Below, piece after piece: positions 5,784-57,965 of a stretch of DNA of 64,000 nt; the stretch's first letter is position 1, and the number at the start of each line of letters is the position of its first letter. Below the pieces are notes generated by a model. It ran no database searches. It was given only the letters and a program-made list of their open reading frames with translations, and was not told the origin of the DNA. The stretch spans positions 1,034,660-1,098,659 of the forward strand of contig CAWFCL010000004.1 of the NCBI GenBank assembly GCA_963814365.1, given 5' to 3'. The translations under genes and the position numbers were made by a program. The stretch comes from an uncultured Actinomycetes bacterium (GTDB taxonomy: Bacteria; Actinomycetota; Thermoleophilia; RBG-16-64-13).

Positions 5784-6824
<1,041 letters not shown>

Positions 6825-7796
6825 CTAGCCACGGATTCTATCACGAGGACCCTTCGAATCTGCCTTCTCAGCGGCCGCCACGAGCCGTCGCAAACGGTGG
6901 TTGACCGCCGAACGAGTCAGCCCTTCTTCGGCCGCTTCGGCCAGTTCGTTCAGGTTAGCGTACGGGTAGGACGTCCTAAGTTGCGCCATCTGCTGCAGAC
7001 CTGCAGGCATGTGCTCCAATCGACCGGAGCGTTCCAGAAACGCGATCGCCTCCAACTGCCTGCAGGCCGCCATCCCTGTGCGGCGGACATTCGCCGAGTC
7101 ACAGTTCGCGACCCTGTTCGCCCGTGCCCTTACCTCCTTCACGACTGCCTGCTTCTCCACTTCCAGAGCCGCGACATGGGCGCCCGCGGCAGCCAGTGCC
7201 CCGGCGACCTCATCCCTGCCCTTCAGATACACCACGAAATTGCCACGTCGCACCGAATACCCTGGACGAAAGCGCATGTCCACAAGCATCGAGACTAAAT
7301 CTACGCACAGCTCTTCGTGCGGAGTGACCACTTCTAGATGTGCCTCCTTTTCCGGCGTGTTGATAGAACCCGCTCCAATGAGGCACCCACGCAAGAACGC
7401 ACCTTTGCAGCACGCTTTCTTCACAAGCCAGGGCGCGATATCCGTCCGCAGACCGAACTTGTCGCTGAGCACGCCCATCTCATTCAGTGCCTGTAGTGCA
7501 GAAGCCGTCCCGGGGATACGCACCTCGTAGATCAGCCTATGACCGAGCCCAGCCTCCCTAGAAGTGATCAGAAGGCCTTCCGCTCCCAGCGCCTTGAAGT
7601 GCGAATACACCATCTTGACGGCAAGCTGGACGGTACTTGCCACGCGGATCTCGTACCGGTCCTCTTCCTTGGTGCCGCCCCGTATCAAGAAGGTGCCTGC
7701 GGTGTGCATCAAGCCGGCCATCGCGCCCTTGCGGCAACATTGATTGCCGTCCTCAACGCGCATCAGTTCTTCGCGAACAATCCTGGTGAAGCCCAT
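6825..7796 (-). CDS. whiA: DNA-binding protein WhiA
   Basis: 323 aa with a C-terminal HTH (LNELAEAAEEGLTRSAVNHRLRRL). Conserved position after rapZ and before gap. Confidence 0.9.
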   Translation of the reverse strand: MGFTRIVREELMRVEDGNQCCRKGAMAGLMHTAGTFLIRGGTKEEDRYEIRVASTVQLAVKMVYSHFKALGAEGLLITSREAGLGHRLIYEVRIPGTASALQALNEMGVLSDKFGLRTDIAPWLVKKACCKGAFLRGCLIGAGSINTPEKEAHLEVVTPHEELCVDLVSMLVDMRFRPGYSVRRGNFVVYLKGRDEVAGALAAAGAHVAALEVEKQAVVKEVRARANRVANCDSANVRRTGMAACRQLEAIAFLERSGRLEHMPAGLQQMAQLRTSYPYANLNELAEAAEEGLTRSAVNHRLRRLVAAAEKADSKGPRDRIRG

Positions 7797-7798
7797 GT

Positions 7799-8734
7799 CT
7801 AACGATGTTCCTCTTTGTCGATGTCGCGGTGACTGACACTCAACACCAGATCGGGCTCCGCACCAAGTCTCTTCCCCAATTCTTCGACCAAAGCCACAGA
7901 ACGATGGCGCCCGCCTGTGCAGCCCACGGCAACGACGAGCCGCTTCTTCTGCTCGCCAACAAATCGCGGAGCAACGAAGTGCAGCAGATCGATCAGTCGC
8001 TCCAGAAAGCCCACTGCCTCGGCGCGGTCGACAACATAGGCGCTGACGGCGTCATCAAGTCCCGAAAGATCTCTGAGCGCCGGTTCCCAATACGGGTTTG
8101 GCAAAAACCTGGCATCCAGGATCATGTCGGCCTCGTTGGGAATCCCGTATCTGTACCCAAAGGACACAAGACTGACAAACAACTGCCCCCTGAGGCCATC
8201 GGCAAGTATCGTCTCCTCAAGGTACCGGCGCAGCTGCCATGGGGACATGTTCGTGGTGTCGATCACCGTGTCTGCCTGACTCTTCAACGCACTAAGCAGG
8301 CTGCGCTCCCTGGCGATGCCTTCTCGTAGATGCGCCGACAATGGGTGGGGTCGCCTGCTCGCCTGATATCGCGCGACCAGCGACTCGTCCGAGGCCTCCA
8401 GATACAGCAGTCGAAACGCACTGCCGGATCTGCGCAGGCATTCGAGAGCGTGGTCCAACTCCTCAAAGAACTCGCCGCCACGAGCATCGAACACCAGCGC
8501 CACCTTGCTGACGCGGCTCCCCTCTAGAGAGAAGAGCTCCAGTGCGTTCGCTGTCATGCGGGGCGGCAGATTGTCTATGCAGAAGTAACCCATGTCCTCG
8601 AAGGTCGCTACCACCTCAGACTTACCCGCCCCTGACAAGCCCGTGATGATGGTCAAGATCCAGGCCTCGCTCTTCGCTCTCGCAGCTCCTGTCAGAGGCT
8701 CTGGAATCGTCCCCACCCATCGTCCCTTCCGCAC
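7799..8734 (-). CDS. rapZ: RNase adapter / nucleotide-binding protein RapZ (YvcJ family)
   Basis: Walker A GLSGAGKS and C-terminal GCTGGRHRSV motif. The start is uncertain: GTG 8734 gives an unusually long N-terminus and internal GTG/TTG starts are possible. Confidence 0.88.
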   Translation of the reverse strand: MRKGRWVGTIPEPLTGAARAKSEAWILTIITGLSGAGKSEVVATFEDMGYFCIDNLPPRMTANALELFSLEGSRVSKVALVFDARGGEFFEELDHALECLRRSGSAFRLLYLEASDESLVARYQASRRPHPLSAHLREGIARERSLLSALKSQADTVIDTTNMSPWQLRRYLEETILADGLRGQLFVSLVSFGYRYGIPNEADMILDARFLPNPYWEPALRDLSGLDDAVSAYVVDRAEAVGFLERLIDLLHFVAPRFVGEQKKRLVVAVGCTGGRHRSVALVEELGKRLGAEPDLVLSVSHRDIDKEEHR

Positions 8735-8736
8735 TC

Positions 8737-9306
8737 TCAGCCATGTTGCCCTCGGCCTCCACCTTCAACGAGACGTTCGTGATCCAACAACCGGACTTTC
8801 CAGCTGGGGTCAGTGCCATATCGGCCCAGACTACCGTCTGAGCGGATCACCCGGTGGCACGGCACCACTATCGGGATGGTGTTGCCCGCCATCACACTAC
8901 CTACCGCCCGCGCCGCTCTGGGGTATCCCGCCAGCTGCGCCAACTCTCCGTAGCTGACAGTGGAGCCGGCGGGCACACTCATGAGCGCCTCCACCGTCCG
9001 ACGCGCAAAGACACTCATCTCGTCCAGATTCCACCGGATATCCTCTGAGCACCAAGACGGCCGCTCCCCACGGAAGTATGTCTCTAGGCTAGAGACCCAA
9101 TGACGGAGCGCCGCCCGGTCCTCAGAGTTCCCTTCGCCCTCTCGTGGTCCCAGACTCGTCAGTTCTACCGGGGGCAGCTCCACCTGAGTCAGACGCCCCG
9201 CCACCAAGATCACCACGCCGTGGCCCCATGGCGTCCAGAATCCGGCCGCGCACGGACCAGCGTCCGTAGAACCCACCGCCACACTGTCAACCGGTCTTGT
9301 GTACAA
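8737..9306 (-). CDS. ogt: Methylated-DNA-protein-cysteine methyltransferase
   Basis: Active site PCHRVIRSDGSLGRYG in the C-terminal domain. Start uncertain: TTG 9306 overlaps the uvrC end, and GTG 9282 is an alternative. Confidence 0.85.
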   Translation of the reverse strand: MYTRPVDSVAVGSTDAGPCAAGFWTPWGHGVVILVAGRLTQVELPPVELTSLGPREGEGNSEDRAALRHWVSSLETYFRGERPSWCSEDIRWNLDEMSVFARRTVEALMSVPAGSTVSYGELAQLAGYPRAARAVGSVMAGNTIPIVVPCHRVIRSDGSLGRYGTDPSWKVRLLDHERLVEGGGRGQHG

Positions 9307-49478: not shown

Positions 49479-49691
49479 GGCGTTGATTCTAGCCGAATCG
49501 ATGCCAGCGAGTCGGACGTCAGTCGAGTGTCACCCCGAAAGTTCACCGGCCAGCGAGAGCACGAGATGACCAGTGTGTGAACACAACCCTTGACAGTTGG
49601 TAGCCCCAGCACCCACAATACCCAGGAGCCCTCCTCGGGGCGACGAGGATGGCTTGGTTCGGTTGGACGAGAATCATCAAAACCCGGAGGG

Positions 49692-49982
49692 ATGTTTATG
49701 CTCCACGAGCCCGCACAAGTAGAACACCGGGCAGACGAGGCCGCCGCCTACAAGCAGCGTCTTGGCCTCATCAATCTGGCTGTCTACAGCGTTATCTACA
49801 TTGCCTTCATCATCATCAACGTCGCTTGGCCCAAGACCATGGGGACTATCGTCGTGGCGGGTCTGAACCTCGCGATCATCTACGGCTTCGCCCTGATCGT
49901 GATCGCGTTGATCCTGGCGCTCGCCTACAACTGGGCTTGCACCAGGCATGAGAAGTCGTTCGAGAAAGAGGAGAAGGCCTGA
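49692..49982 (+). CDS. DUF485 (YjcH-like) inner-membrane protein
   Basis: 96 aa with two TM helices, immediately upstream of actP as in yjcH-actP. ATG follows GGAGGG. The track ORF starts at 49590. Confidence 0.85.
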   Translation: MFMLHEPAQVEHRADEAAAYKQRLGLINLAVYSVIYIAFIIINVAWPKTMGTIVVAGLNLAIIYGFALIVIALILALAYNWACTRHEKSFEKEEKA

Positions 49983-49983
49983 A

Positions 49984-51921
49984 ATGTCAACGGATGTCAA
50001 GCCTCTTGCAATAGTCCTCTTTCTCCTGATCGTAGGCCTAGTTCTGTTCATATCCTTCTGGACCGCGCGCAAAGCCAAGTCTGCTAGCGGCTATTACGCG
50101 GCCGGAGGACGTATTCACTGGGGCATAAACGGAATAGCGTTCGCAGGCGACTATCTTTCGGCGGCCTCATTTCTTGGTATCTGCGGTCTGATCGCCGTTT
50201 CCGGCTACGACGGCTTCTTATACTCTATCGGCTACCTGGCCGGCTGGGTGGTGGCTCTGTTCGTGGTCGCCGAGCCCATGCGTCGCCTGGGCAAATACAC
50301 GTTCACAGACGCCATGGACTCGAAGTTCGACAAGCGCGGTCTGAAGCTTTGGGCAGCCATAGCTACGCTCATCGTCTCCATCTTCTACCTGATACCGCAG
50401 ATGGTAGGGGCCGGGGTGCTGATAGAACCGTTGCTGGGCCTGCCACATTGGGCCGGTGTGGTCATAGTGGGCGCGATCGTCATAACCATCGTCGCCACCG
50501 CCGGTATGACGTCTACCACGTATGTCCAGTTCATCAAGGGTGCCCTGCTAATCACTTTCGCCCTAGTGATCTGCATAGCCCTGCTCGTCCGCGGACTTTC
50601 CACCGAGCCCGACCAGGGTGGAACCGTACCCTTCTATGAGTACCAGACCGTCACCGCGACGACTGGGGCGGATGGGACTATAGTCCCGGATGATTCTTCA
50701 TACGAGGTCCTTGCCGTTCACACCGATGAAGCCAAGGGTCTCACCTTCGTCAAGCTGGACGACGGTCAGAGGGCCACATGGTGGAAGGCGCAGACGGACG
50801 ACGCCGGAGCCGTGGTGGCACTTCACGAGGGTCAAGAAATCGTGACCATGGCGGACGGCACCAAGTTCATCAATGGTGCTGAGGAGTCAAAAGACAACGA
50901 CCTTCGCCAGGTCGGCAACCTTCCGGTCATCCAAGGTAAGAGCGACACCGAGACCGGAGGCCTCAGCCCCTGGAAATTCCTCGCCGTTATCGGCGACAAG
51001 ACGACCACGGTCAACCTATGGAAGTCCTACTCGTTCACCGACGGCGAAGATAGCGTTTCCGTCTACTACGAGAAACCGGTGCCCGGCGACACCATCATGA
51101 GGCCAGGCGCTAAATTCAAGCTCGACGCGGGTTCCTGGGTCGACAGGATCGACTTCATCTCTCTGATGATCGCCCTATTCCTAGGCACCGCTTCGCTGCC
51201 GCATATCTTGATCCGCTACTACACCGTCCCCAGCCAGCGCGCAGCCAGGAAGTCGACCGTAGTCGCCATTGCGGCTATCGGGTTTTTCTACATCTTGACG
51301 CTGTTCTTGGGCTTGGGAGCGATGTCCAGTGCGACGATCAACCCGCTCGACAACAACATGTCGGCGCCGCTTCTGGCACAAGCGTTCGGGACGTTCTTGT
51401 TCGCGATGATCTCGGCGATCGCGTTCGCCACTGTCCTTGGAACCGTGAGCGGTCTTATCGTCGCGTCCTCTGGCGCGGTAGCCCACGACCTACTCGACCG
51501 CTACGCCGGACGCATCCACAGCGAGAGGCAGAAGGTCGTTGCAGGCAGGCTCGCCGCAGTTCTGATAGGCGCCATCGCCATTCTGCTCGGCATCGTCTTT
51601 CAGGGGATCAACGTGTCGTTCCTGGTCGGCCTTGCGTTTGCAGTCGCCGCTTCGGCCAACCTACCGGGCATCATCATGATGCTCTTCTGGAAGCGGACCA
51701 CCTCAAAAGGCATGATCGCCTCCATCATCGTCGGAATCGTGATCTCGGTAGGCATCATCCTGCTATCGCCTACGGCCTGGGAGCTGTACGGTCTCACGCC
51801 AGCGGACGCACCGATTCCTCTGAACAACCCCGGGATCTTCTCAATACCGGCAAGCTTCCTCGCCATCTATCTGGTGTCGAAGCTGACCAAGAGGGACATG
51901 CTCGAAGAGCACTCCAAGTAG
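49984..51921 (+). CDS. actP: Cation/acetate symporter ActP (SSF family) with a long hydrophilic insertion
   Basis: SSF motifs (GYYAAGGRI, GTASLPHILIRYYT). ATG lies 1 nt after the DUF485 stop. A ~185-aa hydrophilic segment is encoded at 50593-51147. Confidence 0.9.
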   Translation: MSTDVKPLAIVLFLLIVGLVLFISFWTARKAKSASGYYAAGGRIHWGINGIAFAGDYLSAASFLGICGLIAVSGYDGFLYSIGYLAGWVVALFVVAEPMRRLGKYTFTDAMDSKFDKRGLKLWAAIATLIVSIFYLIPQMVGAGVLIEPLLGLPHWAGVVIVGAIVITIVATAGMTSTTYVQFIKGALLITFALVICIALLVRGLSTEPDQGGTVPFYEYQTVTATTGADGTIVPDDSSYEVLAVHTDEAKGLTFVKLDDGQRATWWKAQTDDAGAVVALHEGQEIVTMADGTKFINGAEESKDNDLRQVGNLPVIQGKSDTETGGLSPWKFLAVIGDKTTTVNLWKSYSFTDGEDSVSVYYEKPVPGDTIMRPGAKFKLDAGSWVDRIDFISLMIALFLGTASLPHILIRYYTVPSQRAARKSTVVAIAAIGFFYILTLFLGLGAMSSATINPLDNNMSAPLLAQAFGTFLFAMISAIAFATVLGTVSGLIVASSGAVAHDLLDRYAGRIHSERQKVVAGRLAAVLIGAIAILLGIVFQGINVSFLVGLAFAVAASANLPGIIMMLFWKRTTSKGMIASIIVGIVISVGIILLSPTAWELYGLTPADAPIPLNNPGIFSIPASFLAIYLVSKLTKRDMLEEHSK

Positions 51922-51949
51922 GTCGGACTTTCAGTCGGCCCAAGACAAA

Positions 51950-51990
51950 GGCCGCCGGATGTGATCCACATCCGGCGGCCTTTTCTTTGT
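51950..51990. terminator. Bidirectional intrinsic terminator between actP and the convergent satP-like gene
   Basis: GGCCGCCGGATGTG-atc-CACATCCGGCGGCC (14-bp perfect stem) followed by TTTTCTTTGT. The complement is preceded by CTTTGTCTT-type sequence. Confidence 0.85.
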
Positions 51991-52012
51991 ACTCCAGAAA
52001 GGCTTACCTCTT

Positions 52013-53089
52013 CTAGAAGAAGTCCTTCTCTGGGAGGGGTTGACCCGTGTATCCAGCCGTCGCGTAGTACACGGCCTTGTCAAAGAACCGACCCAACTCC
52101 CTGTTGAGATCTACTGCCCGCTGCAGATCTGCAGCCGACTCCCACAGGCCATGAGTACGCGCGGTCATCCAGATTTCGCGCTTCAGCAGCAGAGTCGCGC
52201 TGATCAACTCGGACAACGGTAGCTTCTGTGCCGAGCGAGTAGCTCCCAGGTTGTAGAAGAACTCTCCGATCTCCGCGTCGGCGGGTTGGCCGCCGAAGTA
52301 AGAGTCGACCTGGCTAAGGGCGAATTCGCTGGAGCTCACCAACTCCTTGTCAGACACCGCACCGTAGGAGGGTGTCTGGGGGCTCTGGCGCAACGCCTGC
52401 AGCCAGAGTTCGGCGATCTCGTCACCGTGCTGGACGACGAAGCCCTTGGGCAGATGGCTTACCGGCCCCAGTGGCAGGACTACCTTCCTATAGACTTCGT
52501 TGAGCGTCTGAGCGGCCGCTGTGTAGATGGCAGCTAGGCCGGTCGCTATACCTTCCCATCCAGCTATCTTCTGCATGACAGAAGCGGCGTCGGTATATCC
52601 GCCGGTCTTCAAGAAGTTCTCGGTCGCAAGCAAGAAGAACAGTACGGTCAACAGACCGAACACGACCTGCAACGCGCGGTTAAGCTTCAACGTGCCGATG
52701 TACATATAGCCCGTGAAGACACCCCACAACACGAAATACCAGGCGAGTGCCGTGCTGGTGCTACCGGCCGCAGCGTCGGCCTGGGGAAACAGCGTCGGCA
52801 TGAGCCATATGCCGGCCAGGCTCAGCCAAAACAGGCCATAGGAAGTAAAGGCCAACGTGCCGAAGCTGTTGTTCTTCTTCCACTCCATGATGCCGGCGAT
52901 GATCTGAGCGATGCCACCGTAGAACACACCCATCGCCAAGATCATGGCGCTGAGACCATAGAAACCGGCGTTGTGGATGTTGAGCAGTACGGTGGTGAGG
53001 CCGAATCCCATGAGCCCTAACGGCGCCGGATTAGCGTTCGTATCGAGCAGTTTGGTCACGGTCTCGTTCGCGGCGACAGTGTTTGCCAT
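52013..53089 (-). CDS. satP: SatP/YaaH (GPR1/FUN34) acetate-succinate channel fused to a C-terminal RsbR-N-like helical domain
   Basis: The N-terminal ~210 aa are near-collinear with the YaaH family ([14 protein letters not shown]..., FYGGIAQ, ...VLPLG). An extra ~146 aa (52016-52453) reads [14 protein letters not shown]...LKREIW... Start at ATG 53089 (other ATGs up to 53143). Confidence 0.85.
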
Positions 53090-53234
53090 ATGCAGCATTC
53101 CTTCCATGTGTTTGCAGGATTGTTCCACGTAGCTATCGATCACTGGAGTGAAGTTCCGGTGCTAAGCAGGCGCGGGTCGGCGCAGAATATACCCGCCCGC
53201 CACCACTTCTGTCTACTGACAGACGCAATCTTGT

Positions 53235-53240
53235 AGAATG
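53235..53240 (+). promoter_or_regulatory. Candidate -10 box (TAGAAT) for the PHP/DUF294 operon
   Basis: TAGAAT lies 32 nt upstream of GTG 53273, with SD GAGAGGG in between. The palindrome TCTGTC-N4-GACAGA sits just upstream (53209-53224). Confidence 0.45.
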
Positions 53241-53272
53241 GCAACACGCCAGTAGCGCGCTGAGAGGGTCTT

Positions 53273-54079
53273 GTGATCGAAACGATCAGGGTCGACCTAC
53301 ACTGCCATTCATCGTTGAGCGATGGGGACCACTCTCCAGCCTACGTAGCCCACTCCATAGCGGCCACTGGTGCTGAGGGGGCGGCCCTCACCGACCATAA
53401 CACCGTGTCAGGGCAGCACCAGTTCCGTGCCGTTCTCGAGCGGCGAGGGGTCCGCTCTGTGGTCGGCCTGGAGATGGACGCCCGCTCACCCATCGGGGTG
53501 CTACACCTTTTGGGCTACGGGTTCAACCCCGAACACCAGCCCCTTCTGGACGCCTTATGCACCCTACGGCAACCGCTGAGAGCCTCTGCCAGGTACTGGA
53601 TGGAACGTCTTGTGGCCTTGGCCCCAAAGAGATCTGGCGGAATCGACAAGCCTTCACTTGGCCCGTCGGTCCCTGAACCTCCAAAACCGCCTTCCACCGC
53701 CGAGGTAATAGGCCTGCTGCACGATGCTGGAGGTCTGGCGTTCTTGGCACATCCGCTTGCTGGTGTTGGGAACGTGCAGAATCTAGAGAGAGTGCTTGAG
53801 TGGTTACAACCCGAGGGGTTGGACGGCATGGAAGTCTTCCACAAACCATATTCAAGCGAGACCCAGCAATCGCTGCTCGACATGGCGCTTCGCCGACACC
53901 TTCTGTGCATCGCCGGCAGCGATTTTCATGGTATACATCATTCTGATGGCTCCAGCCCCGGGGTCGATATGCCCTTGGTACACTGGAAGGAGTTCTTGGC
54001 CGCGTTGGACTGCGGCGTAACCGAGGGCTCGCCCTCAAGAAAGGTCGACAGGCTCGCAAGAGAGAAGGGGGCACGTTGA
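53273..54079 (+). CDS. PHP-domain metal-dependent phosphoesterase (TrpH/YciV-like)
   Basis: PHP motifs in order: DLHCHSSLSDG, LTDHNT, GLEMD, LAHP, GMEVFH, AGSDFHG. 268 aa. Confidence 0.85.
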   Translation: MIETIRVDLHCHSSLSDGDHSPAYVAHSIAATGAEGAALTDHNTVSGQHQFRAVLERRGVRSVVGLEMDARSPIGVLHLLGYGFNPEHQPLLDALCTLRQPLRASARYWMERLVALAPKRSGGIDKPSLGPSVPEPPKPPSTAEVIGLLHDAGGLAFLAHPLAGVGNVQNLERVLEWLQPEGLDGMEVFHKPYSSETQQSLLDMALRRHLLCIAGSDFHGIHHSDGSSPGVDMPLVHWKEFLAALDCGVTEGSPSRKVDRLAREKGAR

Positions 54080-57048
54080 ATACTGATAGCGGTCTCATGG
54101 GCAGATTGTTCCCTCAAAGATGGGGCGGCTTCTTGCTCAGGATCGTCCTCCCTGCCGTCTTAGCCGTAGCCCTCTTCATACTTGCCGTCTTTCTGATCCT
54201 TATCCCGTCCGTCGAGACACAACTCCTCGACGGCAAGAAGCAGACCACCCAAGAGCTCACTAGAGCCGCCATAAGCATCCTCGACGAGTACTACGCTGAA
54301 CAGTCCTCCGGCCGCATGACTCAAGAGCAGGCGCAGACAGAGGCGGCCGCCCGTATAGAACTGCTGCGCTACGGAGACGAGGGGCTCGACTACTTCTGGA
54401 TAACGGACACTCACCCCACGATGGTGATGCACCCCTATCTCCCGGAGCTCAACGGTCAGGATCTTACCGACTACCCCGACAAGCGAGGCAAGAAGCTCTT
54501 CGTTGCGTTCGTAAATGAGGTAGAGGATGACGGGTCGGGCTTCGTGGATTACTACTGGCAATGGAAAGACGATCCAGATCGTGTGGTCCCGAAACTCTCG
54601 TACGTTGAGCTGTTTGAACCGTGGGATTGGATCATCGGCACGGGCATATACATCGAGGATGTGAATGCCGCGATCGCCCGCTTTCAAAGGTATCTGAGTT
54701 ACATCTCCTTGGCCATTATCGCCGCCACGGCGCTCCTCCTGTTCTACAGTGCCAGACAGAGCCTCAAAATCGAACGTCGCCGCGCAAGCGCGGAGCAGGG
54801 CCTCAAGGAATCGAACGAGAAGTACATGGCCCTCGTGGCAGCAGCCACCGAAGGCATCCTGATGACCCTGGACGGCAAGTGCGCGTACACTAACAGACCA
54901 CTCCAGGACATGCTCGGTTATGAGCCCCGGGAACTGTCGGACATGCTGACGTCGCTACTTCTGCTGAACGAGACTCCAGCCGATGAGCGGGCGATCGGAT
55001 ACATCCAGAACCTAGGGTCTACGGGCCTCGACACACCTGTCGACCTCTTGCCCCCTCCGACCTTTGAGGCCCGCTTACGCGCCAAAGATGGTCGAGTAGT
55101 CGACTCCCTGGTCACGGCCACCCCGATCTCGCTCGCGGGCAAGCACGGGGTGATACTCATCGTACGCAGCACTGCGGCTCAGAAGGCCATGCAGTCGGCT
55201 TTCGAGGAGTCCAGACGACAGTTCCTAACCATGTCGGACGCACTGGAACTAGGGGTATTCAGGAGCAGTTGGGGCAAACGCGCCACCTTGCTGGAGGCCA
55301 ATCCTGCAATGCGCAAGATCCTCCAATTGCCCGATAGTGCCAACCTGGGCGATTGCGATTGGCTGGACAAGATAGTCGATGTCGAGGAAAGAAGAGCCCT
55401 AGTCGATCGACTGAACAAGGACAAGGTCGTCCAGGACTACCGTCTCGGACTGTGGAGTGACGATGGCGGACGCACAGAAGTGTCGCTGTTTGCAGTCTTA
55501 GTCGATGACGACAAGGGCGAACCCAGGTACTGCGACGGCATCGTCGAGGACGTCACCAGACGGACGAGGGGCGAACACGAGCGAGAGGCGTTGATAGCTC
55601 AACTGCAGACCTCCCTCTTCTACCTGCGCGAACCCATCAACCGTGCGGTGAAACCGGCTCTGTCGCTTGAGATGGGCGAGAGCATACGCCGAGCCGCCTC
55701 TTTGATGAACAAGAGCGGGGCGAGCGCCGTGTTCGTCAACGCACCCGACGGCGAGTTGATGGGGATAGTCACCGACCATGACTTCCGCGAACGCGTCATT
55801 GCGACGAACCTCGACCAAGACGCGACACTGCGAGCGATCATGACGGCACCCGTCGATTCAATCTCTCTAGACTCTCCCGTATACGAGGCCATGCTCATGA
55901 TGCAGGAGCGTGGTGTCGAGAATCTGGCAGTGAAGGACGACTCTGGCAAGTTGGTCGGAATCCTCCGGCTCGGCGATCTGATGCGCTATCAGCAATCCTC
56001 CTCGGTGATAGTCACCGAGTCTATTCGGCGAGCTGCTTCTCTTGACCAGATCGTCGAGGCTCACGACAGATTGCCAAGCCTCGTTGCTGCTGTTGTTGAA
56101 TCCGGAGCGGATACCCGCTACGTCAATCGCATTATCTCTGGAGTGTCCGACACCACAGTCCAACGGTTGCTCGCTATGGCCCTGGATGAACTCGGACCCG
56201 CCCCTACACCTTTTGCCTTTCTGGCACTCGGTAGCGAGGGACGCGAAGAACAGACTCTGCTCACCGACCAGGACAACGCGCTCGTCTACGACGATCCGCC
56301 AAAGGACAAGGCGGATGAGACCTCCGAGTACTTCCTGCGCCTGGGCACCCTCGTCTGCGACTGGCTAGACCAAGTCGGATACTACTATTGTGACGGTGGC
56401 GTCATGGCCAAGAACCCACGCTGGAACTTGTCTCGCTCGGTGTGGAAACAACAATTCTCGCGCTGGATACACAACGCCGACCCACAGGAGCTGCTGGAAC
56501 TCAACATGCTCTTTGATTTCCGGTGCGTGGCAGGTCAGCAGCAGTATGCGCGCGAACTACGAACTTGGGTATTCGACGAGATGCAGGCATACCCGCTCTT
56601 CTTCATCCATTTCGCCCAGAACGCTCTCTCTTTCAAACCGCCTTTGACGGTCCTAGGCAACATTCAGACGACCTCCTCCGAGCAAGGCGACAAGGTCCTA
56701 AGCCTGAAAGAAGCTTTGATGCCTGTGGTCAACTTCGCTCGTCTTTACGCGCTGAAGCATCGCATCGACTCTACCAACACCCTTGATCGCCTGTTCGAGT
56801 TGAAAGACCGTGGCGTCATCAGTCGCGAGTCCTATGAGGAGATCGTGCCTGACTACGAGACCTTGATGCGCATCCGGCTACAGAAGCAGGCCATGGCGAT
56901 GGAAGACAACCGCAAACCGAGCAACACGATCTCACCAAGCGAGATCTCTTCGGGAGAAGAGGCCAGACTCAAGCGTCTCTTCTCGGTAGCCGCCGATCTG
57001 CGCAAGAAAATGAGCTTCGATTTCCTTGGGGGAATCACGGGATTCTAG
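54076..57048 (+). CDS. Membrane sensor protein: TM-sCache-TM-PAS-PAS-CBS pair-DUF294 nucleotidyltransferase-DUF294_C
   Basis: Cache-like periplasmic region (DYFWITDTHPTMVMHPY...YYWQWKDD...PKLSYVELFEPWDWIIGTGIY) between two TM helices; PAS (SNEKYMALVAAATEGIL...); CBS pair; NTase motif GSEGREEQTLLTDQDNALV; C-terminal substrate-binding-like domain. TTG start overlaps the PHP stop (TTGA) after GAGAAGGGGG. ATG 54097 is an alternative. Confidence 0.8.
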   Translation: MNTDSGLMGRLFPQRWGGFLLRIVLPAVLAVALFILAVFLILIPSVETQLLDGKKQTTQELTRAAISILDEYYAEQSSGRMTQEQAQTEAAARIELLRYGDEGLDYFWITDTHPTMVMHPYLPELNGQDLTDYPDKRGKKLFVAFVNEVEDDGSGFVDYYWQWKDDPDRVVPKLSYVELFEPWDWIIGTGIYIEDVNAAIARFQRYLSYISLAIIAATALLLFYSARQSLKIERRRASAEQGLKESNEKYMALVAAATEGILMTLDGKCAYTNRPLQDMLGYEPRELSDMLTSLLLLNETPADERAIGYIQNLGSTGLDTPVDLLPPPTFEARLRAKDGRVVDSLVTATPISLAGKHGVILIVRSTAAQKAMQSAFEESRRQFLTMSDALELGVFRSSWGKRATLLEANPAMRKILQLPDSANLGDCDWLDKIVDVEERRALVDRLNKDKVVQDYRLGLWSDDGGRTEVSLFAVLVDDDKGEPRYCDGIVEDVTRRTRGEHEREALIAQLQTSLFYLREPINRAVKPALSLEMGESIRRAASLMNKSGASAVFVNAPDGELMGIVTDHDFRERVIATNLDQDATLRAIMTAPVDSISLDSPVYEAMLMMQERGVENLAVKDDSGKLVGILRLGDLMRYQQSSSVIVTESIRRAASLDQIVEAHDRLPSLVAAVVESGADTRYVNRIISGVSDTTVQRLLAMALDELGPAPTPFAFLALGSEGREEQTLLTDQDNALVYDDPPKDKADETSEYFLRLGTLVCDWLDQVGYYYCDGGVMAKNPRWNLSRSVWKQQFSRWIHNADPQELLELNMLFDFRCVAGQQQYARELRTWVFDEMQAYPLFFIHFAQNALSFKPPLTVLGNIQTTSSEQGDKVLSLKEALMPVVNFARLYALKHRIDSTNTLDRLFELKDRGVISRESYEEIVPDYETLMRIRLQKQAMAMEDNRKPSNTISPSEISSGEEARLKRLFSVAADLRKKMSFDFLGGITGF

Positions 57049-57075
57049 TCGCCCCCAGGCGACCCTCGCTCCACC

Positions 57076-57109
57076 CACGAGCGGCCTGGACTAACCCAGG
57101 CCGCTCGTG
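57076..57109. terminator. Perfect 14-bp hairpin between convergent genes
   Basis: CACGAGCGGCCTGG (57076-57089), 6-nt loop, CCAGGCCGCTCGTG (57096-57109). No U-tract. Abuts the permease stop. Confidence 0.5.
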
Positions 57110-57965
57110 TCACCTCTGCCTACGCCTGCGCCTGCGCCTCCACATCCTCACAAGACCCTTCTGCGGCGACAATACGAAAGTGATCATGAAGAATGCCGTC
57201 GCCAGCAGCACCATGGCCCCGCTCGGAGAGACATCGAGGTAGTAGCTCAGAAACAGTCCACCGACGGAAGCCAGAGCACCCAGACACGCTGACAGCGCCA
57301 TCATCGTCGCCAGTCTTCGTGTCACGAGATAGGCGGTAGCAGGTGGAGTCACGAGCATGGCAGCAACGAGCGCGACCCCTACAGTACGCAGCGAGAACCA
57401 CTATGGTCAGAGCAAGCATCATGAAGAGCGTGGTACGAAGAAGTCCAGTGCGTAGACCCAGCGTCTGTCCAAAGACGGGGTCGAACGAGACTACCAGCAG
57501 GCGTCGGTATAGCAGCCCTACAGCGGCCAACACCAGCAATGCCAAGCCCCCGCTCAGCCATAGATCTCCCTCGCTGACCCCAAGTACGTTGCCGAACAAC
57601 ACGTGAGTGAGATCCACCGCATACCCCTCCATGGTGCTGATAAGCACTACCCCAAGGGCCAACGCCGCGGCAAAGAAGATCCCGATCGCGGTGTCCTCTC
57701 GCACCACCCCGCTGCGTGATACGTAGCTGATGCCAGCAGCTACGACAACAGCTGCGATCAGGGCACCCACAAGCAGGTTCCCCCCCACCAGAAAAGCTAC
57801 GGCCACCCCCGGCAAGATGGCATGAGCCAGAGCGTCACCCAGGAAAGCCATGGACCGCAGCACGACATAGCAGCCCACGACCGCGCATAACACGCCCACG
57901 ATGAGCGAAGCCGCAAGTGCGCGCTGCATGAATCCGAGGCTGAAGGGTTCTGTCAGCCAACTCAT
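57110..57965 (-). pseudogene. ABC-3 family metal (Zn/Mn/Fe) transporter permease, interrupted by an apparent 1-nt insertion near 57395
   Basis: The frame from ATG 57965 is canonical up to ...MMLALTIVV and then becomes R/C-rich nonsense. The +1 frame continues SLRTVGVALVAAMLVTPPATAYLVTRRL... and ends at 57110. Confidence 0.85.

Follow-up and report, generated by a model that had tools for sequence, protein, structure and literature searches.

A predicted SatP acetate channel carrying a C-terminal non-haem globin domain in one family of uncultured actinobacteria

SatP (YaaH) of Escherichia coli and Citrobacter koseri (PDB 5zug, 5ys3, 5ys8; AceTr family, TCDB 2.A.96) is a six-helix channel whose known representatives end close behind the last transmembrane helix. 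According to a 2025 survey of the AceTr/Ato family, members from prokaryotes and fungi are 200–300 amino acids (aa) long, and the sole fusion reported there is a vertebrate Sua5/YrdC protein (10.1101/2025.05.26.656167). In RsbR, the stressosome co-antagonist with partners RsbS and RsbT, a haem-free globin domain lies at the N-terminus and is followed by STAS; the protein is built into the stressosome. Related sensor globins from Bacillus, namely pXO2-61 (3pmc), pXO1-118 (3pmd) and the sensor domain of the sporulation kinase BA2291, stand alone or lie N-terminal to a histidine kinase; the ligand of this branch is described in the literature as a fatty acid, and in sensors of the pXO2-61/BA2291 type an internal tunnel takes up the fatty acid (and a halide). 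RsbR-N and the pXO sensors are dimers ('dimeric globin fold' in the wording of the literature), and RsbR-type globins are stated to bind fatty acid via a conserved Arg (PMC8717448). Globins of this type have neither a proximal nor a distal His, and a conserved Arg takes the place of the proximal one. Here we describe a gene, satP-globin, in which a SatP channel continues into a globin domain of this kind. It lies in a 64,000-nucleotide stretch of an uncultured actinobacterial assembly (GCA_963814365.1, contig CAWFCL010000004.1, positions 1,034,660–1,098,659), called the window below, as one minus-strand open reading frame (ORF) at 52013–53089 that encodes 358 aa and ends in a TAG stop. The original prediction, made from the letters of the window, had proposed a SatP-like channel with an extra C-terminal part; the ORF is present as described, and the peptides quoted from it were found. 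Its parts are as follows, with the evidence for each in brackets; models are from AlphaFold2 (AF2), with confidence given as the predicted local distance difference test (pLDDT).

52013–53089, minus strand: satP-globin fusion coding sequence (ORF and translation; start set by homologue N-termini)
52472–53038, minus strand: SatP/AceTr six-helix channel domain, residues 18–206 (Pfam, NCBIfam, AF2 model, Foldseek)
53012–53032, minus strand: NPAPLGL signature motif of the AceTr family, residues 20–26 (read from the sequence; motif named in 10.1101/2025.05.26.656167)
52442–52471, minus strand: conserved linker and fusion junction, residues 207–216 (alignment conservation, end of unfused satP, pLDDT)
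52046–52441, minus strand: non-haem globin-fold sensor domain, residues 217–348, five long helices and one short (sub-threshold RsbRD_N match, profile against PDB, domain model, Foldseek)
52235–52237, minus strand: codon of Arg285, a near-invariant Arg of the family and candidate carboxylate-binding residue (conservation, alignment to the pXO Arg)
52016–52045, minus strand: C-terminal tail, residues 349–358 (unstructured in models, weakly conserved)

The only Pfam family to match the extension is RsbRD_N (PF14361), with a score below the gathering cut-off of 24.3 bits in this sequence (19.5 bits for the whole protein; 22.7–22.8 bits, E = 1.7e-4, for the domain alone); HisK_N (PF09385) reached 13.3 bits against a cut-off of 24.4. 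Among 22 orthologues, RsbRD_N is matched by 17 with E < 0.01 (best, 1.1e-6) and HisK_N by one, while relatives of the domain that are fused to NUDIX score 25.5–36.8 bits for RsbRD_N, above the cut-off. When a diverse family profile (A3, 50 sequences taken from loci) was searched against PDB sequences, it found pXO2-61 (3pmc, E = 3.9e-8), pXO1-118 (3pmd, 3.5e-3) and RsbR (2bnl, 0.68), the remaining rows being an unrelated autophagy protein at E ~1. In the full-length AF2 model (pLDDT 77), a linker of low confidence joins the six transmembrane helices to a C-terminal domain made up of helices; modelled separately, this domain reaches pLDDT 87 and a predicted template-modelling score of 0.84, with five long helices and one short. 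In Foldseek searches of the PDB with the globin half, the top 50 matches were all globin folds. Template-modelling scores (TM-scores) were 0.76–0.78 to pXO2-61 (3pmc), 0.66 to pXO1-118, 0.68 to RsbR-N (2bnl), 0.69 to the Moorella stressosome RsbR (3zta) and 0.61–0.68 to the haem globin-coupled sensors AfGcHK, BpeGReg and DosC.

The extension is a haem-free sensor globin of the RsbR/pXO superfamily. Within it, the domain is nearer in sequence to the pXO2-61/pXO1-118 branch, which supplied the best sequence matches and the best structural match and has in common with it an FFDxxxYY motif and an Arg aligned with R285, than to RsbR, with which it shares the haem-free globin fold and the helix-A pattern E-I--LW---L. 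It is accordingly classed as a borderline member of the RsbRD_N superfamily and a clear homologue of pXO2-61-type non-haem globins, in the sense of homology and not of membership in Pfam HisK_N, and not as an RsbR. Both kinds of relative differ from it in architecture: the pXO sensors, at ~15–20% identity, stand alone or precede a kinase, and RsbR has its globin before a STAS domain, whereas the domain described here follows a channel and is attached to no STAS.

Family-wide conservation was re-measured on 117 unbiased phmmer cluster representatives; FFDxAVY and LLKxxxW were search patterns of the locus scan, so their conservation among the scanned loci is partly an ascertainment effect. The most conserved positions are D337 (113/117), F336, R285, G282, E294, G346, F335, Y347, T239 and Y341. 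At the R285 position, Arg occurs in 100 of the 117 representatives and in 51 of 52 loci, and it aligns with the Arg of A(R/Q)ER in pXO2-61 and pXO1-118, the FFDxxxYY motif being common to all. From this alignment, rather than from a superposition of coordinates, we infer that R285 may be the fatty-acid-binding Arg of RsbR-type globins. The domain family lacks a conserved His: at most 45% of the 117 representatives have His at any one position, another partly-His column (41%) has Glu in this protein, and H313 is confined to the SatP-fused group, with Lys in its place in homologue P0099. The surface loop around H313 (residues 313–319, HGVWES; window 52133–52153) has low pLDDT and is near-invariant in SatP fusions, similar (GVWE[RK]) in NUDIX fusions and different in stand-alone copies; it may be a contact to the attached effector, or may reflect mere shared ancestry of the two fused groups.

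The RsbRD_N matches, the profile matches to PDB sequences, the globin fold found with AF2 and Foldseek and the lack of a conserved His are four independent lines that back the original prediction of an RsbR-N-like non-haem globin on a cytoplasmic C-terminus, and the similarity to RsbR-N and globin-like domains on which it hinged was detected. The assignment can be refined: the domain is nearer to pXO2-61/pXO1-118, is C-terminal and without STAS, and belongs to a subfamily that is mostly stand-alone or NUDIX-fused.

The channel half is an ordinary SatP. Residues 18–204 match Pfam PF01184 (Gpr1_Fun34_YaaH; E = 1.1e-35, 123.6 bits against a cut-off of 25) and residues 20–206 match the NCBIfam equivalog AceTr_1 (NF038013; 246.8 bits against a cut-off of 50). 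The signature motif, which with the next residue reads NPAPLGLM (N20–M27) at the start of the first transmembrane helix, is invariant across 47 aligned homologues. Transmembrane helices in the AF2 model span residues 21–40, 48–71, 75–100, 112–133, 138–162 and 166–204, and Foldseek with the N-terminal half returned the SatP crystal structures 5ys3 and 5zug (TM-score 0.91, 53% identity, which holds over the whole channel). On these matches, the protein is classed as a SatP/AceTr acetate (short-chain carboxylate) channel of the hexamer type, its hexameric state and its conduction being predicted. The C. koseri SatP chain (192 aa), recovered in a search of PDB sequences, aligns to residues 19–214 and ends there (LPIGEAHLVP), so the last ~144 residues of satP-globin are extra; this agrees with the earlier statement that E. 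coli SatP ends near the equivalent point and that the ORF runs on. Because SatP termini are cytoplasmic in crystal structures, the tail would be cytoplasmic and lie under the pore. The loop between transmembrane helices 5 and 6 (window 52571–52612, residues ~160–173) has a 7-residue insertion relative to most fused homologues (DFGGGAIWGK), common only to P0005 among the aligned sequences listed.

At the junction, L205, P206 and G208 are invariant in the 47-sequence alignment, and the unfused satP of congeners stops right there (...VLPLGPVTKK, then stop). The linker has pLDDT below 50 in the full-length model, with low values at residues 204–212.

A search of 5.8 billion proteins gave ~100 clusters of the fusion, ~351 aa long and 56–90% identical, each with precomputed PF01184 and PF14361 matches. 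When a profile of the extension was run against 185,579 species genomes, 28 proved to hold the fusion, all of them uncultured Actinomycetota metagenome-assembled genomes (MAGs) of Thermoleophilia or Gaiellales from soils, sediments and reactors. Clusters and genomes alike fall within one family of uncultured Thermoleophilia/Gaiellales-like actinobacteria, which is the spread returned by the database search for the architecture that had been proposed with the original prediction. The extension is conserved far beyond chance and as strongly as the channel, with many invariant positions across the 47 sequences (62–84% identity in the C-terminal part, 61–78% in the transmembrane part), and purifying selection on the two halves is equal.

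Shorter homologue matches are fragments or frameshifted calls. Several MAG copies of the fusion (L028 5434–6510; P0092, P0102 and P0103; several labelled MFD) are frameshifted or have internal stops, and these look like assembly errors rather than pseudogenes. Three seemingly unfused sequences within the fused clade (P0105, P0107 and P0109) are most likely truncated gene calls; P0107, the one inspected individually, retains the first ~60 residues of the globin domain.

The globin domain is found far more widely than the fusion. A search of representatives with the extension alone returned 293 matches. A near-full domain is present in 116 representatives: it stands alone in 98 proteins of ~150 aa, forms the C-terminal part of a longer protein in 15 and the N-terminal part in 3. 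Apart from SatP, the longer proteins that were checked are zinc-ribbon NUDIX hydrolases, and one of these also has a methyltransferase domain; for the substrate class of the NUDIX partner, NCBIfam gave only sub-threshold NudC-like matches. The NUDIX-globin fusion occurs in most sampled genomes of the family, and MAGs holding the SatP fusion also hold a NUDIX-globin paralogue with 36–38% identity to the SatP tail. The paralogue of the same genome (G000:C7:110634–111038; L081 1351–2301, minus strand) has 316 aa, with the domain C-terminal. NUDIX fusions and stand-alone forms were found in Deltaproteobacteria, Planctomycetota, Aminicenantes and Acidobacteriota. The globin domain is thus a portable module that sits C-terminally on different effectors, unlike that of RsbR.

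Stand-alone homologues have heterogeneous contexts, including acpS, a hotdog thioesterase, a radical SAM enzyme, amidohydrolases and a carboxypeptidase. In Acidobacteriota, one stand-alone copy lies directly upstream of acpS, the gene for holo-ACP synthase (L053 5977–6856); L062 5977–6856 has the same ORF layout. Another stand-alone copy (L069 5980–7415) is beside a hotdog thioesterase-like DUF4442 gene. These contexts give at most a faint hint of acyl/CoA chemistry, and the others are unrelated to it.

The neighbourhood of satP-globin comprises the following features.

49590–51921, plus strand: yjcH (DUF485) and actP (SSF acetate permease-like), convergent neighbours (Pfam; in 28/28 fusion loci)
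53273–57048, plus strand: PHP phosphoesterase overlapping a Cache-PAS-PAS-CBS-DUF294 nucleotidyltransferase, divergent neighbours (Pfam; in 27/28 fusion loci)
49490–57137, unstranded: ~7.6-kb five-gene block, replaced in congeners by ~0.87 kb with one plain satP (tblastx collinearity of L084 and L085)

The layout yjcH-actP / satP-globin / PHP-Cache-DUF294 is the same in all 28 fusion loci; at the one locus without PHP-DUF294 (L025) the contig ends 306 bases upstream of the domain match, and the other 27 extend far enough. That the gene stands back-to-back with the DUF294 operon had been pointed out before, and it is indeed divergent from PHP-DUF294; its convergence with yjcH-actP is a point that the original prediction did not stress. 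Beyond yjcH lie an RCK-type K+ channel gene and argS.

Of 61 sampled genomes of the family, ~29 hold a satP of the fused type: in 25 the long frame is intact or the tail was detected, and in 4 the gene is fragmentary. The same ~29 carry a ~1000-aa Cache-DUF294 protein, whose gene nearly always shares the contig with satP at a distance of ~3.5 kb. A protein of this type is absent from the ~25 genomes whose satP is solely plain, with frames of mostly 200–255 aa. A second, shorter DUF294 type (frames of ~500–550 aa) occurs in other genera and not beside satP (G010, G034, G100, G168, G173, G183, G198, G208 and G213).

Both states, fused and plain, exist within the genus of the window. Two congeners, compared with the window at L084 8262–9128 and L085 ~6146–9199, have flanks collinear with it that enclose a plain satP on the opposite strand, 58–60% identical in the channel part. 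The five-gene block is a presence/absence unit, gained or lost whole. A tree of the channel domain places the genuinely unfused sequences, including the satP of the congeners and C. koseri SatP, in one clade (support 87/98) apart from the fused ones, which suggests that the fusion arose once, provided that the root is on the unfused side. With the same proviso, one and the same site would be taken up by either the block or the plain satP, the latter not being a truncation product of the fusion. Truncation of the fusion was ruled out as the source of the plain satP of the congeners, which groups with classical SatP and lies on the opposite strand.

satP-globin is the sole PF01184 gene of its genome, so the fusion would be the working channel, with no spare copy. 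Acs and acetate kinase are both encoded in the genome, and acetate could therefore move in either direction.

What might the tail do? We tentatively favour a reading, one that is quite possible but short of probable, in which the globin tail is a cytoplasmic ligand-sensing module on SatP that would bind a carboxylate or fatty-acyl compound at R285 and control the channel. The tail would be regulatory because its conserved core is polar and because the module occurs on two unrelated effectors and mostly as a stand-alone protein; the ligand would probably be a carboxylate or acyl compound because of the analogy with the pXO sensors and the attachment to a carboxylate channel. In outline, the globin would bind a small molecule of the cytoplasm, most likely such a carboxylate or fatty-acyl compound, held by R285 together with T239, E294, D337 and Y341; the signal would pass through the short conserved linker to transmembrane helix 6 and the channel would open or close, giving feedback control of acetate flux from inside the cell. 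In a hexamer, the six globins would probably form three dimers, in the manner of RsbR-N and the pXO sensors. Cytoplasmic regulators, built in or docked, control the pore in RCK-gated K+ channels, in SLC26/SulP transporters with a C-terminal STAS domain and in AmtB-GlnK; the likeness lies in a cytoplasmic sensor controlling a pore, and the folds and families are different.

Several points weigh against this reading. The ligand, the effect on gating and the geometry of the oligomer are proposals, and we know of no physiological ligand of RsbR-N globins. R285 is, by alignment, a candidate counterpart of the fatty-acid-binding Arg; the low-confidence linker means that the relative position and orientation of the two domains are not confidently predicted; and the RsbRD_N score of this sequence falls slightly under the Pfam cut-off. 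The strict linkage with DUF294-PHP also allows a different control logic.

A tail without any sensing role is the least improbable of the alternatives, though we consider it unlikely: dimerising globins could staple the hexamer as an assembly or stability module, or form a platform that recruits an enzyme such as Acs for substrate channelling. The dimeric state of RsbR-N and of the pXO sensors would suit such a role, as would the fact that RsbR-N ligands were never identified and that the AF2 model does not fix the relative orientation of the domains. The most conserved residues are, however, polar or charged (R285, D337, E294, T239 and Y341) and fit a pocket better than a plain interface; plain SatPs, those of the congeners included, assemble without a tail; and the occurrence of the same module on an unrelated soluble NUDIX protein, and mostly alone, is typical of a regulator. 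The linkage just mentioned could instead mean that the tail mainly serves the co-inherited Cache-PAS-CBS-DUF294 nucleotidyltransferase and PHP esterase as a docking site or substrate, such that external acetate sensed by Cache would switch the channel through reversible nucleotidylylation or binding, by a logic like that of GlnD-GlnK-AmtB. Every genome of the 61-genome sample with a fused satP has the ~1000-aa Cache-DUF294 and none of the ~25 plain-satP genomes does, the 28 fusion loci agree in synteny (with PHP-DUF294 seen in the 27 of sufficient length), the block is gained or lost as a unit, and conserved Tyr residues are present (Y242, Y341 and Y347). Yet with a single origin of the fusion this co-occurrence may be mere shared inheritance of one block, and the Tyr residues are conserved family-wide, including in copies that stand alone or are fused to NUDIX in genomes and phyla lacking the cassette; on balance this account is improbable. 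More improbable still is its fullest form, in which the five-gene block would be one machine, an acetate counterpart of GlnD-GlnK-AmtB, whose membrane-borne Cache-PAS-CBS-DUF294 enzyme senses external acetate and, with PHP, reversibly nucleotidylylates or clamps the SatP globin tail to gate the channel. If that were true, it would provide the first substrate for DUF294 enzymes and the first output mechanism for a non-haem globin.

The structural likeness to AfGcHK, BpeGReg and DosC (TM-scores of 0.61–0.68) could point to a haem globin-coupled sensor that makes acetate flux responsive to O2, NO or redox; in such sensors a conserved proximal His ligates the haem. We consider this highly improbable and have discarded it, as the 117 representatives have no conserved His and the significant sequence matches are to non-haem members only. 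An artefact, be it loss of a stop codon with read-through, frameshifting or a chimeric assembly, has next to no probability: frameshifts are plain to see in several relatives from long-read MAGs (P0092, P0102, P0103 and L028), but an intact ~351-aa frame with conserved linker and domain recurs in ~100 clusters and in 28 species genomes that stem from independent studies and assemblers. Read-through or misassembly, the possibility that an unconserved extension would have raised for the original prediction, is ruled out by this conservation. We also rejected a role as a stressosome component: the protein has no STAS domain, and the genome has no RsbR-like globin-STAS gene, its two RsbRD_N-like domains sitting on SatP and NUDIX and its three STAS genes being small and unlinked. 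The ligand-sensing module thus remains the reading we prefer, at the tentative strength given above.

The minus-strand frame of satP-globin is open to the TAG at 52015–52013 from either a GTG at 53143 (376 aa) or an ATG at 53089 (358 aa). The true start is the ATG, because homologue N-termini all read MAN(T/S)xxSNETV and a GGAAGGA Shine-Dalgarno sequence lies upstream. Two further elements flank the gene.

53186–53215, minus strand: promoter-like site TAGACA-18-TATATT upstream of satP-globin (consensus scan only, 10/12 matches; putative)
51947–51983, unstranded: strong, GC-rich and perfect 17-bp hairpin that separates the convergent genes actP and satP-globin and is flanked on each side by T-runs (terminator scan and sequence)

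The hairpin is probably a bidirectional terminator.

The two-domain architecture is already computed in domain databases and is undescribed in the literature searched. A full-text search for SatP and RsbR together gave nothing relevant, and the globin survey mentions neither SatP nor NUDIX (PMC8717448). A search for DUF294 and acetate likewise gave nothing relevant, its matches concerning DUF2946. As far as our literature searches reach, we found no description of a globin-fold regulator on a channel, and no gating or regulatory mechanism of AceTr/SatP channels came up in the literature searched.

Interest in the fusion is limited by its narrow taxonomic range, and function here is read from sequence and models. 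To our knowledge, the signal sensed by RsbR-type non-haem globins has been at issue since 2005; with one member joined directly to a short-chain carboxylate channel and a sister joined to NUDIX, the search for a ligand narrows to carboxylates, acyl compounds or nucleotides. For the channel family, a natural SatP with its own cytoplasmic sensor would offer a handle on the control of acetate flux and a ready comparison of full-length and tail-less forms. For the organisms themselves, the architecture suggests that acetate flux is regulated from inside the cell, and the block is a presence/absence unit in actinobacteria of sediment and soil, habitats in which acetate is likely an important substrate.

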